Of a stretch of DNA of 64,000 nucleotides, positions 52,932-59,549 are shown piece after piece (positions within the stretch are counted from its first letter, which is position 1; each line of letters begins with the position of its first letter). The stretch is taken from the NCBI GenBank assembly GCA_965263035.1, contig OZ253580.1, positions 2,752,001 to 2,816,000 of the forward strand. The letters are read 5' to 3'. The notes under the pieces are model-generated. The model saw only the letters and a program-made list of their open reading frames with translations. It searched no databases and was not told where the DNA came from. This stretch comes from Acidobacteriota bacterium (lineage in GTDB: Bacteria; Acidobacteriota; UBA6911; RPQK01; JAJDTT01). Position numbers and translations under genes: made by a program.

Positions 52932-53830
52932 ATTGCGAGACTCGTCTTCCATCCCCGGGAAACACCCCGCCTGGAACTCTCCATGTTTTGGCCACGCCAT
53001 TGGGACACTTGGGGGATCTGAGCCCACGGGCGCGCGAAGTTCTCACTTCCGTCGAACTAGTCGCTTGTGAGGACACTCGACATTCCGGAAAGCTGCTCAC
53101 CAGCTTCGCCATCCGCACTCGCACCATCAGCTACCATGAACACAATGAAACGGCTCAGGCCCAGACCCTCTTGAACCGGCTCCGCCAGGGTCAGAACATT
53201 GCCTTGATCAGCAATGCCGGGACGCCCCTGGTCTCGGACCCCGGTTATCGCCTGGTGCGCCTTTGCCGGAAACACATGATTCCCGTCTCTCCGATCCCCG
53301 GTCCCTCGGCGGCCATCGCCGCGCTGTCGGTTTCCGGACTTCCCACCGATCGGTTTCTGTTTGCCGGATTCCTTCCCAGGCGGTCCGGACCCATGCGCCG
53401 CGAGCTGGAGGCGCTGAAGGACTTGAAGGCAACGTTGATTCTCTATGTGGCGCCGCACAGACTGGCCTCAACCCTGGAGATGGCCCGGGAAGTCCTGGGT
53501 GATCGTCAGACCTGCCTGGCCAAGGAGATGACCAAGATCCACGAATCGTTCTACCTGGGAGCCCTGAGCCAGATAGGCTCCCTGGCCGGCAGCCAGCCGA
53601 AAGGGGAGTACACACTGGTCATCGAAGGGGCCGCATCTCAGTCTCCGAGGGTTTCGAACCTGGATCCGGAAGCCTACGTGGAAGGACTGATTCAGGTTCG
53701 AGATCTGACTCGTTCCCAGGCCGTGCGAGCCGCCGCGCGCGCCTTGGGGCTCCCTCGCCGCGAGGTCTACCGCCGCTGCCTCGAAGGTGGAGAGCTGCCC
53801 GACCGCCGTGAAGGATCCGGTGGAATCTGA
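52928..53830 (+). CDS. rsmI: 16S rRNA (cytidine1402-2'-O)-methyltransferase
   Basis: [36 protein letters not shown]. Confidence 0.93.
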
Positions 53831-53878
53831 GGAAATATTCAGAAAATCTGCATTACGATCGGGATATTCTCACATTAC

Positions 53879-53916
53879 TTGATCATCTTCCGTTATTTGT
53901 TGTATAAATATGAATT
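53879..53916 (+). promoter_or_regulatory. Putative sigma70 promoter overlapped by an ARG-box-like site
   Basis: TTGATC-18bp-TATAAA; TTGTATAAATATGAAT (53900-53915) resembles ArgR consensus wTGnATAwwwATnCAw; AT-rich island before arg genes. Confidence 0.5.
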
Positions 53917-53946
53917 CTTGTCCCTCAACGGGATTGGTGACAGAGC

Positions 53947-55032
53947 ATGAACGACTTGGAGCACGCGACGAGTCTTGCGACTCCGGCTACTACCAGTGTT
54001 GACGCCATCTCCTCGGTGGTCTCTCGTCTCCAGCTTCCTGTGAACTTCCGGCTGGGACATCCGGACCAGATTGACTACGGCCAGATCGTGGCGGCTCGCG
54101 TCCGGAGCGTAAACCTCTCCTATCCGGTGTTGGAGACCACAGGGGGCCGGGGTATCCGCCTCCGGGAGGGCATGAAAATAGTCGGTGCTCTTGGTGCCCG
54201 ACGAGCTCTCCACGGGTTCTCCGGACGCTTGCCGGCGCGACTCGGCCCAGGAGCGGTCTTCCACCTTCTGAACAAAGGGGGTGTGATGGGCGAGTGTACC
54301 GCCTTTCATCGTGCCTTGGGTTGGCCGGCAGAGCTCGAGTATCTCGGAACCGTTCACCATGGGGGCAGGTTTCTGGGTCTCCGGGACGGCGCCCTTCCCT
54401 CGCTTTCCCATTCCCTTCCCAGGATTCCCGTGATCCTGGTGCTGGGGACCTGCATGAACTCCGGAAAAACCGCCGTCTGCAAGCAGATTCTCCGCCTCTT
54501 CTCCCAAAAGGGCTTCAACGTCAACGCGGGCAAGGTGGCCGGTGTGGCAGCGTGCGCCGACCTGGAGGCAATGCGGAAGAGCGGGGCCGGCCGGGTCCTG
54601 AGTTTTAATGACCTGGGCCTTCCCTCCAGCGCCCATTTGTCCGATCTCTCCACCGTCGCCCGGTCGCTGGTGCACCACTTGTCCTCCCCGCGTCCGGACT
54701 TCACCCTGCTGGAGGCGGGCGACGGAATTCTGGGCGGCTATCATGTTGATTCTCTGCTCCATGACGATCATTTGCTGGAACGAGTCGTGAGCGTGGTCCT
54801 GTGCGCCAACGACCTGATGGGAGTCTGGGGATCCCTGGAGTGGTTGCGCCAACAAGGCCACGAACCTCAGGAGCTGTCGCTGCTGGTGTCGGGCCCGGCC
54901 ACCGACAGCGCTGAGGGAATTCGCTACATCGAGCGGCATTTCCGGGTTCCTGCGGCCAACGCCTTCGAGAGCTCCGGAAAGCTGTGCACCTTCATCCTGA
55001 AACGGTTGATACCATGGTCAAGATCGGCATAG
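53947..55032 (+). CDS. DUF1611/DgcN-like P-loop protein heading the arg operon
   Basis: VGALG.RRA..G N-domain, LGTCMNSGKT P-loop, AGKVAGVA, LLEAGDG; overlaps the argC start by 19 nt. Confidence 0.65.
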   Translation: MNDLEHATSLATPATTSVDAISSVVSRLQLPVNFRLGHPDQIDYGQIVAARVRSVNLSYPVLETTGGRGIRLREGMKIVGALGARRALHGFSGRLPARLGPGAVFHLLNKGGVMGECTAFHRALGWPAELEYLGTVHHGGRFLGLRDGALPSLSHSLPRIPVILVLGTCMNSGKTAVCKQILRLFSQKGFNVNAGKVAGVAACADLEAMRKSGAGRVLSFNDLGLPSSAHLSDLSTVARSLVHHLSSPRPDFTLLEAGDGILGGYHVDSLLHDDHLLERVVSVVLCANDLMGVWGSLEWLRQQGHEPQELSLLVSGPATDSAEGIRYIERHFRVPAANAFESSGKLCTFILKRLIPWSRSA

Positions 55033-56024
55033 CGGGCGGGTCGGGATACAGCGGCGGGGAACTGATCCGCAACCTGGCCAAACATCCCCAAGCGCAGTTG
55101 ACCTGGATCTCCTCCCGGCAATTCTCCGGTCAACCTGTGGCATCCCTCTATCCCAACTTGCGGGGATTCGTGGATTGTCATTTCGACAGTCTGGATTCTC
55201 TTGCGGACACCGACTTGGATGTCCTTTTCCTGGCCTTGCCCCATGGCCATGCCATGAAGATCCTGCCGCGGCTTCCTCGGGACCTGATCGTCATCGACCT
55301 GAGCGGAGATTTTCGCATTTCCGATGCCGCCAGCTTCGAGCAGCACTACGGATTTGTCCAAGAGGCCCCACAACTTCAGTCCACCTTCGTCTATGGCCTT
55401 CCCGAGATCCATCGGGACCGGATACGCCAGAGCTCCAGGGTCGCCAATCCGGGGTGCTTTGCCACCGCTACCATTCTTGCCCTCCACCCTCTGTACCAGG
55501 AGGGGTGGGTCAAGGGGCCCGTTTTCGTAGACACCAAAACCGGATCCTCCGGGGCTGGTCGGGTGCCCGGCCACAAAACCCATCATCCCCGGCGGAGCAA
55601 CAGCTTCTTTCCCTACAAGCCGTTTCGCCACCAGCACGTGGCCGAAATCTCACAGATCCTGGACACCGCCGCCCACCCGCTGGTTTTCCAGACCTACTCC
55701 ACACCCTTGGTCCGGGGCATTTTTGCCAGCCACTACATGGAGTTGGACCGGCCGCTGCGGGCCGACGAAGTCCGGGATCTCTACTCCAGCTATTACGGAA
55801 ACGAATTCTTCATTCGTTGGGTCGGCGAAGACCCGGACATCAACTTCGTCCGCAATGGGAACTTCGTGGATCTGGGCGCGGCCCACGACGACCATTTCCT
55901 CATTGTCTGGTCGACGCTGGACAATCTACAGAAGGGCGCTGCCGGCCAGGCCATTCAGAATATGAACCTGATCTGCGGCCTCCCGGAAACCATGGGACTC
56001 GATTTCCCTCCGTCACATCCGTGA
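55014..56024 (+). CDS. argC: N-acetyl-gamma-glutamyl-phosphate reductase
   Basis: GGSGYSG.EL, LALPHG, DLSGDFR, ANPGCFAT, DNL.KGAAGQA.QNMN. Confidence 0.93.
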   Translation: MVKIGIAGGSGYSGGELIRNLAKHPQAQLTWISSRQFSGQPVASLYPNLRGFVDCHFDSLDSLADTDLDVLFLALPHGHAMKILPRLPRDLIVIDLSGDFRISDAASFEQHYGFVQEAPQLQSTFVYGLPEIHRDRIRQSSRVANPGCFATATILALHPLYQEGWVKGPVFVDTKTGSSGAGRVPGHKTHHPRRSNSFFPYKPFRHQHVAEISQILDTAAHPLVFQTYSTPLVRGIFASHYMELDRPLRADEVRDLYSSYYGNEFFIRWVGEDPDINFVRNGNFVDLGAAHDDHFLIVWSTLDNLQKGAAGQAIQNMNLICGLPETMGLDFPPSHP

Positions 56025-56050
56025 CGGACTCGACTCGGCAGGGAGAAAAA

Positions 56051-57220
56051 ATGAGAGAACTTGCCAACACCGTCATGGAAACGGAGGACCGGTACCAGCT
56101 CAAGACCTACGCGAAGCTGCCGTTGGTGCTGGATCGGGGCCGCGGTTGCTACGTCTATGACCAGGACGGAAACGAATACCTGGATCTGTACGGCGGCCAC
56201 GCCGTGGTCTCGACCGGCCACTGCCACCCCCGGGTCGTGGAAGCCATTCGCACTCAGGTCGAGGAGATTCTCTTCTATTCCAACGTGGTCTACAGCTCGG
56301 TCCGCGCTCGGGCGGTCAAGAAGCTGATGGAATTTGCGGGACCACCCTACTGGCAGGCGTTCTTGGCCAATTCGGGCAGCGAGGCCAACGAGAGCGCCAT
56401 CAAGGTGGCCCGTGCCCTGACCGGCAGGCCCACAGTTCTGTCCCTCTCAAATTCCTTTCACGGACGTACTTACGGAAGTCTGTCCAGCACCGGTGTCTCC
56501 CATTACGCCGAGTATCTGAACACTCCCGTCCCCGGTCATCGTATTCTGGATCTCCAGGAAATCGCCGTTTCCGTCGATTCGGAAACGGCCGCCGTCCTGC
56601 TGGAGCCGATCCAGAGCATGGGTGGAGTGAAGGAGGTTCCGGAAAAGACTCTCCGTCAGATCCACGACGCCTGCCGCAGTCACGGGTCGTTCCTCATTTT
56701 CGACGAGGTCCAGACCGGAGTCGGCCGCACCGGCAGCTTCCTCTACGCCGGCACCGGAGGAATCTACCCCGAGATGGTCACCCTGGCCAAAGGGATCGCA
56801 TCGGGAGTTCCCGCCAGTGCGCTTCTGGTGACCCGCGAAGTGGCGGAACGGGTGCGGTCGGGGGACTTGGGCGCCACCTTCGGAGGGGCCCCCATTTCCT
56901 GTGCCGCCATGGAAGCCACGCTTCAGGTTCTGGAAGAGGAGAACCTGATCCAGAATGCGGCACGGATCGGAAGCTACCTGCAGCATGAGCTGGAGGCCCT
57001 GCCCTGGGTTGAGGAGGTCCGGGGAAGGGGGCTCTTGCTGGGCATCAAGATCAAGGGAGGAACGGCCAAGGATCTGGGGCGTTTCCTGCGGGCAAGCAGA
57101 ATCCTGACCGGTACCTCCAGCAATCCGTCCGTGCTTCGCCTGATGCCGCCGCTGGTCCTTGGACGAAATGAGGCCGATGCCTTCCTGGAGGTGATCCGCG
57201 ACTATGAACCTGGTCATTAA
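56051..57220 (+). CDS. argD: Acetylornithine aminotransferase
   Basis: YLDLYGGHAV, NSGSEANE, FHGRT, DEVQTG.GRTG, LAKG; context. Confidence 0.88.
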   Translation: MRELANTVMETEDRYQLKTYAKLPLVLDRGRGCYVYDQDGNEYLDLYGGHAVVSTGHCHPRVVEAIRTQVEEILFYSNVVYSSVRARAVKKLMEFAGPPYWQAFLANSGSEANESAIKVARALTGRPTVLSLSNSFHGRTYGSLSSTGVSHYAEYLNTPVPGHRILDLQEIAVSVDSETAAVLLEPIQSMGGVKEVPEKTLRQIHDACRSHGSFLIFDEVQTGVGRTGSFLYAGTGGIYPEMVTLAKGIASGVPASALLVTREVAERVRSGDLGATFGGAPISCAAMEATLQVLEEENLIQNAARIGSYLQHELEALPWVEEVRGRGLLLGIKIKGGTAKDLGRFLRASRILTGTSSNPSVLRLMPPLVLGRNEADAFLEVIRDYEPGH

Positions 57221-58022
57221 GCTGAGCGGAAAGGTCCTGGAACAGGAGAGCCTCCGCCGTTCTCTCTGTAATCAGATCACGGCCCTGATTCGCGCTCCCC
57301 ATCGGATTATTCTGATCCACGGAGGCGGAAAGCAACTTTCCGGCCTCTGCGAACGGTTGGGAATTCCGGTGGTGCAGCACGAGGGACGCCGGGTCACCGA
57401 CGAGCCTACGTTGAACGCTGCGAAGATGGTCTTCTCGGCCGCCAACCGGGACTTGGTGGCGACGTTGAATTCCTGCGGCGCAAGAGCCATCGGCTTTGCC
57501 AGCTTCGATGCCGGACTGGTTCGCTGCCGCCGGCGGGGACCGGTCCCCGTGCGGACCGCCGGATGCAACGGCGTCTCCGAGAAACAATTGGTGGATTTCG
57601 GTCTGGTCGGAGAGATCGAGAGCGTCGATCCTCGTCTGATTCAGGACCTCTGGGCTGCGAATCTGCTTCCGGTGGTGAGTTGCCTGTGCGCTACCGATGA
57701 CGGCCGAATTCTCAATATCAACGCCGACACTCTCGCCGCCAGACTCGCCACCGCGTTGCGGGCCGACTGCCTGGTGTCGGTGACCGACGTGGACGGTCTC
57801 TATCTGGACGACTTTCGCGAAACGGTGCCCCGGCTGACCGCGGATGAGGTCCGCGTGCACTTGCGGTCCGGTGTCATCAGCGACGGGATGGTCCCCAAGA
57901 TTCAGACCGCCTTGAAGGCATTGGAGCAACAGATTCCCATGGTCCAGATCGTGGGCGGATTGGCGCCCAACGGTCTGATCAGGGGCATCGAGGGTCTGGC
58001 GGGCACCCGCATCGTCCCCTGA
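57204..58022 (+). CDS. argB: Acetylglutamate kinase
   Basis: VIKLSG, IHGGG, GRRVTD, NINAD, TDVDG, GMVPK. Confidence 0.9.
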   Translation: MNLVIKLSGKVLEQESLRRSLCNQITALIRAPHRIILIHGGGKQLSGLCERLGIPVVQHEGRRVTDEPTLNAAKMVFSAANRDLVATLNSCGARAIGFASFDAGLVRCRRRGPVPVRTAGCNGVSEKQLVDFGLVGEIESVDPRLIQDLWAANLLPVVSCLCATDDGRILNINADTLAARLATALRADCLVSVTDVDGLYLDDFRETVPRLTADEVRVHLRSGVISDGMVPKIQTALKALEQQIPMVQIVGGLAPNGLIRGIEGLAGTRIVP

Positions 58023-58049
58023 CCGCCCTTCGAGCTGGAACGGGATATG

Positions 58050-59549
58050 TCAGGCGTCCAGCGCCAGAACGGGTTTCGACAAACCCAGCTCCTGCTCCAG
58101 CACATGCGCGACCCGCAGTAACAGACCTTCCCCGAAGTGGGGCCCCAGCAGCTGCAGTCCGATCGGCACGCCCTCAGGTGTGTAGGCGCAAGTGGTGGCC
58201 ACTCCGGGAATGCCCGCCAGATTGGCAGTGACCGTGTACACGTCCGACAAGTACATCTCCAAGGGATCAGCGGTCATGTCGCCCTGCCGAAACGGCAGTG
58301 ATGGAGCGGTGGGACCCATCAGAACGTCCGCCCGCTCGAAAGCTCTGCAGTAATCCTCCTTGACCAGGGTCCGAACCTTGCTGGCCTTGAGGTAATACGC
58401 ATCGTAGTAGCCGGCACTCAAGACATAGGTCCCGATCATGATCCGCCGCTTGACCTCGTCTCCGAATCCTTCGCTGCGGCTGTTTCGATAGGTTTCCTCC
58501 AGGGCCCCGATCCTGCTGCTCCGGTGGCCATATCGCATTCCGTCGTAGCGAGCCAGATTCGAACTCGCCTCGGCCAGAGCAATGATGTAGTAGGTGGCTA
58601 TCGCGAACTCCGTATGGGGCAGATCGACCTCCACGACCTGACACCCAACAGCCTCCAGCTTGGCTGCCGCGCGCCGGACCGCAGCTTCGATCCGCCGGTC
58701 CAGACCGGACGAGAACCACTCCGCCGGAAGACCGATCCTCAAGCCTCGGACGTCCCCTTCGAGTGCTGCAACATAATCTTCCACCGGCCGCCTTGCGGAG
58801 GTCGAGTCCATTGGATCGTAGCCGGACACGACCTGCAGAATCATGGCCGCGTCACGTGCAGTGTGGGCCAGCGGTCCAATCTGGTCCAGCGAGGAGGCAA
58901 ACGCCACCAGTCCGTAACGGGAAACCCTCCCGTAGGTCGGTTTCAATCCCACGACTCCACAGAAGGCGGCGGGCAGGCGAATCGAGCCGCCGGTGTCACT
59001 CCCCAGGGCACCCGGAGCCTCCATTGCGGCCACCGCCGCGGCCGATCCGCCGCTGGACCCGCCGGGAACTCTGTTCAGGTCCCAGGGATTGCGGGTGGGG
59101 AAGAATCCCGAGTTCTCGGTGGTGGAACCCATGGCGAACTCGTCCAGATTGGTCTTTCCCAGAATCAGCCCTCCGTCAGCCCGGAGACGGGCGACCGATG
59201 TGGCTTCGTAGGGGGGAACGTAATGCTCCAGAATCCGGGACCCGCAGGTCGTCCGCATTCCCCGGGTAACAATATTATCCTTCACGGCCAAGGGAATTCC
59301 GGTCAACAGGCCGAGCTCCCTTTTCCCCGAGGCCAGAGTCTGATCCAGAGCCCGGGCCTCGTCCAGCAGAGTATCCGCACCAACGCTGATGAAGGCCTGG
59401 ACCTTGGGATCTCGCGACCGAATCCGCCGCAGGTAGGCTTCGGCGATTTCTACCGATGAGATCTGCCGATTCTTGATCGCCCGGTGCAGTTGGGCAATGG
59501 ACAGATCGCAGATTTCACACGCCGATCCGGGTGACTCGTGTTCCATCAC
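58050..59549 (-). CDS. gatA: Asp/Glu-tRNA amidotransferase subunit A
   Basis: GKTNLDEFAMG, PGGSSGGS, SDTGGSIR, SSNLARYDG, YLSDVYT. Confidence 0.96.
   Translation of the reverse strand: MMEHESPGSACEICDLSIAQLHRAIKNRQISSVEIAEAYLRRIRSRDPKVQAFISVGADTLLDEARALDQTLASGKRELGLLTGIPLAVKDNIVTRGMRTTCGSRILEHYVPPYEATSVARLRADGGLILGKTNLDEFAMGSTTENSGFFPTRNPWDLNRVPGGSSGGSAAAVAAMEAPGALGSDTGGSIRLPAAFCGVVGLKPTYGRVSRYGLVAFASSLDQIGPLAHTARDAAMILQVVSGYDPMDSTSARRPVEDYVAALEGDVRGLRIGLPAEWFSSGLDRRIEAAVRRAAAKLEAVGCQVVEVDLPHTEFAIATYYIIALAEASSNLARYDGMRYGHRSSRIGALEETYRNSRSEGFGDEVKRRIMIGTYVLSAGYYDAYYLKASKVRTLVKEDYCRAFERADVLMGPTAPSLPFRQGDMTADPLEMYLSDVYTVTANLAGIPGVATTCAYTPEGVPIGLQLLGPHFGEGLLLRVAHVLEQELGLSKPVLALDA

Follow-up and report, generated by a model that had tools for sequence, protein, structure and literature searches.

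The arginine locus headed by gene X

The window, by which we mean the whole 64-kb stretch of DNA that was analysed (positions 2,752,001 to 2,816,000 of contig OZ253580.1, from an Acidobacteriota bacterium), carries a gene that we call X at the head of a unit of arginine genes, all reading on the plus strand. Gene X (53947..55032, +) is an open reading frame (ORF) of 361 amino acids whose product is predicted to be an N-acyl-L-glutamate synthase, that is, the equivalent of ArgA. It is followed by argC (55014..56024, +; 356.4 bits against TIGR01850, cut-off 233.6), by argD for the acyl-ornithine aminotransferase (56048..57220, +; 316.7 bits against the Pfam model Aminotran_3) and by argB for N-acylglutamate kinase (57204..58022, +; 189.8 bits against TIGR00761, cut-off 151.3). 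The best NCBIfam matches of argD are acetylornithine transaminase models, every one of them under its cut-off. The genes are packed closely. The argC start codon, an ATG at 55014, gives an overlap of 19 nucleotides (nt) with X, argC and argD are spaced by 23 nt, and argD overlaps argB by 17 nt. No argA, argJ or lysW/lysX lies within the unit. On the upstream side, rsmI ends at 53830, 116 nt 5' of X, and on the downstream side gatA (58050-59549) converges on the unit. A scan of 53700-58200 found no promoter-like site, and no more terminator-like sites than in shuffled sequence. A sequence-only reading of this DNA had reported the 361-residue ORF as first in a tight unit with argC, argD and argB, the 19-nt overlap, an ARG-box-like site upstream, the absence of argA, argJ and lysW/lysX, and the motifs GTCMNSGKT and LLEAGDG in the protein. 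All of this stands, and the position of X at the head of an arg unit is confirmed as a real feature.

The linkage to arg genes, which that reading had proposed to check by neighbourhood profiling, recurs widely. Among the best 80 loci of X relatives, 75 have argC immediately after X on the same strand, and at least one arg gene is present in 79. Two of the five loci without the adjacency stop at a contig edge. The usual order is argR-argG-X-argC-argD-argF'-argB, where argF' encodes N-acetylornithine carbamoyltransferase (ArgF'), and the close relatives of the window's locus (L015-L026) have rsmI-X-argC-argD-argB. These loci span Acidobacteriota, Sumerlaeota, Chloroflexia, Planctomycetota, metagenome-assembled genomes labelled 'Clostridia', Oligoflexales and Proteobacteria, and no other gene recurs widely in the clusters. 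In four loci, an M20 deacylase of the ArgE/DapE type is encoded between argB and argH. If X is step 1 of the pathway, those four operons cover every step, and X is therefore the only gene left in them for step 1. A further connection comes from a metagenomic protein of 626 residues, P0147, found on four contigs, in which an X domain (40% identity) is fused to an ArgB-like kinase. Its source name is 'acetylglutamate kinase', and in layout it parallels classical ArgA, which likewise joins a kinase to a synthase, the synthase part being different. No fused X forms of at least 633 residues turned up in the search, which is weak evidence. Long open frames in three genomes (G133, G256 and G001) had suggested further X fusions; they proved to be separate genes in a GC-rich genome. 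Between argC and argD, four Acidobacteriota arg operons hold an ORF of about 125 residues with a tRNA_bind domain (L047:8089-8457, L049:8132-8509, L050:8179-8553 and L089:8162-8530).

The ARG-box-like signal upstream of X consists of two palindromes. Palindrome A, TGAGGAAATATTCA (53828..53841), is the sole site in the window with two or fewer mismatches to TGAATWWWWATTCA, and palindrome B, TGTATAAATATGAA (53901..53914), is placed 33 nt ahead of the X start codon. Within the 116 nt that separate rsmI from X are three of the five window sites with three or fewer mismatches to TGAATWWWWATTCA; these fall in two distinct places, one of them being an overlapping site. Palindromes such as TGTATAATTATGCA, TGTATAATTATACA and TGCATAATTATGCA, along with others, occupy the same place upstream of X in all 12 close relatives. 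Palindrome B is the top match in the 6.2-Mb genome to the consensus TGYATAWWTATRCA, which was itself derived partly from palindrome B and related sites. There are 16 genome matches to this consensus, and another one of them falls in the argR-argG region. One ARG-box-like site of the genome (at 907096) is inside the argR reading frame, upstream of argG. The genome encodes ArgR, and from the sites taken together transcription of X-argC-argD-argB is probably under ArgR control through the two upstream palindromes.

Genomic distribution of X and the arginine pathway

The window comes from a genome assembled as one 6.2-Mb contig and estimated to be 97% complete, and the absence of the usual first enzymes extends from the unit to this whole contig. 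Model searches of the genome found no ArgJ, no classical ArgA (the ArgA model matches argB only) and no LysW. Of the models for short forms of N-acetylglutamate synthase (NAGS), NF005921 had no match and NF005840 reached 22 bits against a cut-off of 154. The later arginine steps are all there, with argB, argC and argD at the X locus and an argR-argG-argH-argF cluster about 1.9 Mb away. That cluster lies on the minus strand at G000:C1:903223-907330 (locus L014), directly after a radical-SAM CofH/MqnC-like gene. Its argF encodes a canonical ornithine carbamoyltransferase (OTC; 332 bits against TIGR00658, cut-off 281), and the genome has no ArgF'. Acetylornithine deacetylase is the top NCBIfam match of two M20 proteins, whose scores of 244 and 241 bits stay under the cut-off of 298. 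Judged by these model searches, step 1 is the sole arginine step of the genome that lacks a candidate other than X.

We then have the distribution across 301 Acidobacteriota genomes, each at least 90% complete; the counts that follow take in three genomes flagged as unpublished (G048, G023 and G145). A match to X at E <=1e-20 is found in 91 genomes, divided into 82 at orthologue level (>300 bits) and 9 with a paralogue only (129-168 bits), a split that was set after seeing a bimodal score table and that counts fragmentary matches in G245 and G287 as orthologues. ArgJ is present in 89 of the 301 genomes and in 0 of the 82 carriers of an X orthologue. Classical ArgA (TIGR01890 over its cut-off) is present in five of the genomes and likewise in none of the 82. 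The sequence-only reading had named anti-correlation with argA and argJ as a check on its proposal, and this is the pattern found. X matches and ArgJ coincide in three genomes only, all of the paralogue class. In families f9, f28 and f32, genomes of the X type and of the ArgJ type occur side by side, and the switch between X and ArgJ therefore occurred more than once. Outside this phylum, none of four X carriers from other phyla has ArgJ. The 141 sampled Chloroflexota genomes contain a single carrier, which is the query genome itself, too few carriers for a test of exclusion in a second phylum.

The partner enzymes are less uniform. ArgF' over its cut-off occurs in 70 of the 301 genomes and in 64 of the 82 X carriers. 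The 18 carriers with no ArgF' include all 7 genomes of family f1 as well as families f3, f4 and f6. ArgE-like proteins (E <=1e-55) occur in 38 genomes and in 18 of the 82 carriers. Six genomes (G171, G277, G293, G052, G104 and G174) have ArgF' over its cut-off and no X match at E <=1e-20, and some of their congeners carry X. Possible causes are an assembly gap, a match missed at the first stage of the search, or a third kind of enzyme for step 1.

These counts bear on a different assignment, in which X would take over a late activity of ArgJ rather than begin the pathway, either as a deacylase of acyl-ornithine or acyl-citrulline or as a transacylase returning the acyl group to glutamate. The exclusion observed is, after all, with ArgJ, the enzyme that does that job. 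Among the 82 X carriers, 64 show no ArgE-like match at E <=1e-55, which often leaves step 5 without a candidate, and X might belong there instead. The same-order families f3, f4 and f6 (for example, G032, G048 and G108) have X and none of ArgJ, ArgF' or an ArgE-like protein at that threshold. Against this, X and an M20 deacylase stand together in the four operons described above, the window's own genome has its two M20 proteins nearest to acetylornithine deacetylase, and step 1 in that genome would be left with no candidate. Nor does the P-loop fold of X, described below, give any hint of a hydrolase. We consider a late-step role very improbable.

More distant paralogues of X (30-36% identity, 129-168 bits) were excluded from the orthologue counts. 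They are arg-linked in none of seven loci (L136-L142, in G037, G228, G002, G089, G038, G136 and G271). Genes found next to them encode, among others, an ABC exporter, peptidases of the M28 (PA + TFR_dimer) or M20 type, an ATP-grasp protein of the YheCD type and an FMN reductase. This clade may acylate or ligate another amino acid or a peptide.

Domain structure of the X protein

X belongs to a sizeable family. Among 8000 candidates scored, 560 proteins match at E <=1e-3, all of them unnamed or 'hypothetical', and an exhaustive search gave 1078 clusters of relatives at 50% identity, encoded by at least 589 species genomes. An alignment of 30 sequences has 51 invariant columns, distributed across the N-terminal and C-terminal halves. 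The AlphaFold model made with this alignment has a predicted local distance difference test (pLDDT) score of 91 and shows a beta N-terminal domain followed by an alpha/beta P-loop domain.

The C-terminal domain (residues 157-361; 54415..55029, +) is of the SIMIBI P-loop type and DUF1611_C-like according to hhalign, Foldseek and VIA-align. It contains the Walker A loop GTCMNSGKT at residues 167-175 (54445..54471, +), of which G167, T168, M170, G173, K174 and T175 are invariant in the 30 sequences. It also contains LLEAGDG at residues 254-260, whose EAGDG portion (residues 256-260; 54712..54726, +) has E256, G258, D259 and G260 invariant and is aligned by hhalign with the EGQG of DUF1611. The N-terminal domain (residues 13-150; 53983..54396, +) is predicted to be all-beta (AlphaFold 2 pLDDT 89-91, and 89 when modelled by itself). 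Its invariant residues are S23, Y59, E63, G83, R85, A87, G90, G93, P96, N109, G111, G112 and G115. No relative of this domain was found among solved structures, the best Foldseek E value being 0.55 with DUF1611 structures among the targets. VIA-align against 48,161 chains gave a best Z of 3.1 and none of 5 or above. Such a lack of matches is not proof of a different fold.

Direct searches place X in no established family. It matches no Pfam or NCBIfam model, with no Pfam hit at E <=0.01 and only AAA_26 and MobB at E 0.16, both on the P-loop. In particular, there is no match to a GNAT acetyltransferase domain or an ArgJ domain, and PF07755 (DUF1611; gathering score 25 bits) is not listed even at E <=10. 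A sequence search of the PDB found no hit with the single protein and only MobB (E 1.4) with the X profile. PF07755 does appear on some distant members of the X family, sub-threshold and on the P-loop only (E 3e-4 to 1e-2), and one distant paralogue passes its cut-off, again on the P-loop only (31.5 bits).

Comparison of profiles was more informative. The 30-sequence X profile aligned by hhalign with a set of 20 DUF1611 proteins from Acidobacteriota genomes at a probability of 89.1% (E 2.2e-6) over 173 columns, covering X residues 159-358 and the C-terminal domains only. A control comparison with BioD gave 3.3% (E 0.013), the control alignment being a shallow one of 17 sequences from few genera. 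The structure comparisons are less selective. Foldseek lists FtsY and dethiobiotin synthetase (DTBS) along with DgcN (7xrj), the last at rank 3 with E 8.5e-6 and a root-mean-square deviation (rmsd) of 5.6 A. VIA-align puts 2g0t first (Z 15.5), with 2obn at 15.1 and DgcN 7xrj at 14.6. CTP synthase, DTBS (15.2) and HypB come within 1 Z unit, and these ties rule out structure comparison as a means of singling out DUF1611. Unlike structure, the profile comparison does single out DUF1611 as a remotely homologous relative of the P-loop domain.

The family assignment of the sequence-only reading, made to DUF1611/DgcN from motifs, therefore survives in part. The expected Foldseek match to DgcN was found, tied as it is with other SIMIBI folds, and the C-terminal P-loop domain is remotely homologous by hhalign; PF07755 failed and the N-terminal beta domain is unmatched. 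The signatures differ as well. All 20 sampled DUF1611 proteins have GTD[CS]xxGK[RM] and 18 have EGQG, where X has GTCMNSGKT and EAGDG. The residue following GK is T in 193 and S in one of 215 X-family proteins, and R (18) or M (2) in the 20 DUF1611 proteins. On these sequence grounds, X is a sister family to DUF1611, apparently sharing the P-loop domain only, and is not a DUF1611 member.

DgcN itself is a D-glutamate N-acetyltransferase, EC 2.3.1.312 (PMC11747546; see also PMC12363236 and PMC10845958), and the title of PDB entry 7xrj names it so. Like X, it has the homologous C-terminal P-loop domain with matching GTxxxxGK, E-G-x-G and C-terminal 'P-A-x-(N/D)' segments, and by its name it acts on the amino group of glutamate, as is proposed for X. 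It differs in belonging to the GKR/GKM group rather than having the GKT of X, and the N-terminal beta domain of X appears unrelated to it. It also works on D-glutamate in catabolism, whereas X would use L-glutamate in biosynthesis. DTBS, the amidoligase domain of CTP synthase, HypB and FtsY share the fold of the X C-terminal domain (Z 14-15) and a Walker A of the GTxxxxGKT type (GTGTEIGKT in the BioD of the window's own genome), and they have no counterpart of the N-terminal domain. GNAT-type NAGS (ArgA) and ArgJ resemble X in proposed product and in operon place, with no relation in sequence or fold. The usual place of ArgJ is between argC and argB.

In P-loop NTPases, the Ser or Thr after GK binds Mg2+. 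This opens the question of whether X could be an ATP-dependent ligase, attaching free succinate or acetate, by way of an acyl-phosphate and with no CoA thioester, to the L-glutamate amino group. The model would be the P-loop enzymes of the DTBS, CobQ and CTP-synthase type, which activate oxygen atoms in this manner. A GTxxxxGK[ST] motif is present in 194 of the 215 X-family proteins, with Lys174 and Thr175 invariant in the 30 sequences, as against GKR or GKM in all 20 DUF1611 proteins. E256, at the end of a Walker-B-like strand, is invariant too, and the ATP-using DTBS and CTP synthase tie with the DUF1611 structures (Z 15.2 for DTBS against 15.5). On the other side, the X profile is closer to DUF1611 (89%) than to BioD (3%, from the shallow control), and the characterised DUF1611 enzyme is named an N-acetyltransferase. 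We regard the ligase as rather doubtful. An extended version appears unlikely to us, in which X would be a ligase whose Walker A was lost in the DUF1611 relatives, with a substrate-binding beta domain of a fold new to solved structures, and in which the window's clade would be a second functional subtype, possibly acetyl-specific, beside the succinyl type predicted in print.

The same fold raises another idea, that X is an NTPase outside the pathway proper that regulates or assembles the arg enzymes, either as a partner of ArgB or ArgC or as a metal-insertion factor for the deacylase, comparable to HypB, UreG or MobB. These three are indeed among the structural and weak hidden Markov model neighbours of X, and the fusion of X to ArgB in P0147 would be compatible with a regulatory partner as well. 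However, the many invariant polar residues across both domains resemble a substrate site. The fixed operon position, together with the exclusion of ArgJ and ArgA, looks more like a missing enzyme than like a helper, and the pathway would still have no step 1. We therefore take a helper role to be improbable.

Proposed reaction, prior prediction and acyl group

We favour the reading that X provides N-acyl-L-glutamate and so carries out step 1 of ornithine and arginine synthesis, and with no restriction on the donor we think it probably does. The sequence-only reading had predicted such a role for a protein of neither the GNAT nor the ArgJ type, and the case for it has grown, at the level of sequence, through the operon linkage in several phyla, the exclusion of ArgJ and ArgA, the X-ArgB fusion and the operons that are otherwise complete. 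For the narrower form in which the donor is an acyl-CoA, our support is tentative and falls a little short of even. Gene order, distribution, remote homology and fold are what the analysis shows. From these we infer a reaction, a donor and separate tasks for the two domains, as follows. X would make N-acyl-L-glutamate in place of ArgA or bifunctional ArgJ. The DUF1611_C-like P-loop domain would bind the nucleotide part of the acyl-CoA, as in DgcN. The family-specific N-terminal domain, with invariant Arg85 and glycine-rich loops, would hold L-glutamate, and the acyl group would move onto its alpha-amino group.

A number of points weigh against the step-1 reading or against parts of it, and they include the frequent gap at step 5 and the after-the-fact division of X matches into orthologues and paralogues. 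First, 129 of the 301 Acidobacteriota genomes have none of an X orthologue, ArgJ and classical ArgA. Therefore, other unrecognised routes exist, and the logic of filling a gap is weak by itself. As an observation in its own right, these 129 genomes mean that Acidobacteriota commonly either have at least one more first enzyme of arginine synthesis that escapes recognition or are auxotrophic. Second, genomes in one phylum are related, and the counts overstate their independence. Third, in G246, an X carrier, the GNAT half of the ArgA model finds a stand-alone match of 163 bits. Within the protein, the role given to the N-terminal domain, a predicted structure with no known relative, is a guess, and to judge from the motif the canonical Walker A GKT of X fits Mg-NTP use better than it fits a copy of DgcN chemistry. 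Cys286, in the segment LCAND, is Ala in the proteobacterial members and in P0147, and because of this it is, on the alignment, not a universal catalytic residue. Finally, the prediction made in print for a family member, to which we now turn, is marked as not experimentally confirmed in the table of GapMind 2026 (PMC13759103).

The sequence-only reading had presented X as a candidate new synthase, and the novelty does not hold. X as a step-1 enzyme is not new, the same role having been predicted in print for a family member in 2026. According to GapMind 2026 (PMC13759103; bioRxiv Appendix 2), the Steroidobacter protein ACG33_RS14135 (A0A127FCT3) is a predicted N-succinylglutamate synthase. The grounds given there are that it is nearly always in arg operons, that it never occurs with ArgA, that Foldseek matches it weakly to DgcN 7XRJ, and that the accompanying ArgF' is without Glu92. 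The text describes a hypothetical protein of about 355 residues, whose match to 7XRJ has an rmsd of 5.6 A and E 1.4e-7. In our search of literature on DgcN, DUF1611, D-glutamate and N-acetylglutamate synthase, only GapMind 2026 bears on the X family. The plasmid maps deposited with PMC13759103 include the ACG33_RS14135 gene and E. coli argA. The insert of pALF12, translated by eye, encodes about 357 residues with GTCMEAGKT, ELGDG, LCAND and other motifs of the X family, in the order seen in X. Its label, which describes it as codon optimized, gives 'A0A127FTC3' where the text and table of PMC13759103 have A0A127FCT3, probably a transposition in the label. ACG33_RS14135 is thus like X in its linkage to arg operons, its lack of co-occurrence with ArgA, its weak match to DgcN and, by eye, its hallmark motifs in order. 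It differs in lying in argG-X-argC-argD-argF'-argB, whereas the X of the window lies in rsmI-X-argC-argD-argB, and the window's X clade shares only about 40% identity with the proteobacterial branch (L085).

The acyl group is a separate matter. The carbamoyltransferases encoded beside X pass the ArgF' model in seven of seven cases tested (306-452 bits, cut-off 288). Position 92 was located through the series of E92 mutants in the PDB, and in 50 ArgF' proteins adjoining X it is T in 35, A in 5, S in 4, V, P and Q in 2 each, and E in none. By this sequence evidence, an ArgF' without Glu92 in most relatives points to succinyl as the acyl group, in line with the GapMind 2026 argument. The GapMind 2026 text (PMC13759103) has Thr not among the residues to which position 92 was mutated. 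Since the OTC of the window's own genome is a canonical one and ArgF' is missing there, the succinyl argument does not carry over to the window's clade. For that clade, with its canonical OTC and ArgE-like deacylases, the acyl group may be acetyl or succinyl. OTC-coupled and ArgF'-coupled X clades also differ in some residues, for example NKGGV-GECTAFHR against N[MIL]GGV.

Beyond what is in print, the present analysis adds the exclusion of ArgJ, the two-domain anatomy with an N-terminal fold that has no match, the canonical Walker A that raises the ATP-dependent alternative, and the fusion to ArgB. A further addition is an X subtype that goes with canonical OTC and that may lend itself better to testing in E. 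coli. Many arginine-making bacteria have no recognisable first-step enzyme, and the X family is a strong candidate for that gap. If the role of X were confirmed, predictions of arginine auxotrophy from genomes would change for these mostly uncultured groups, and X would represent a third way to N-acylglutamate, neither of the GNAT nor of the ArgJ type.

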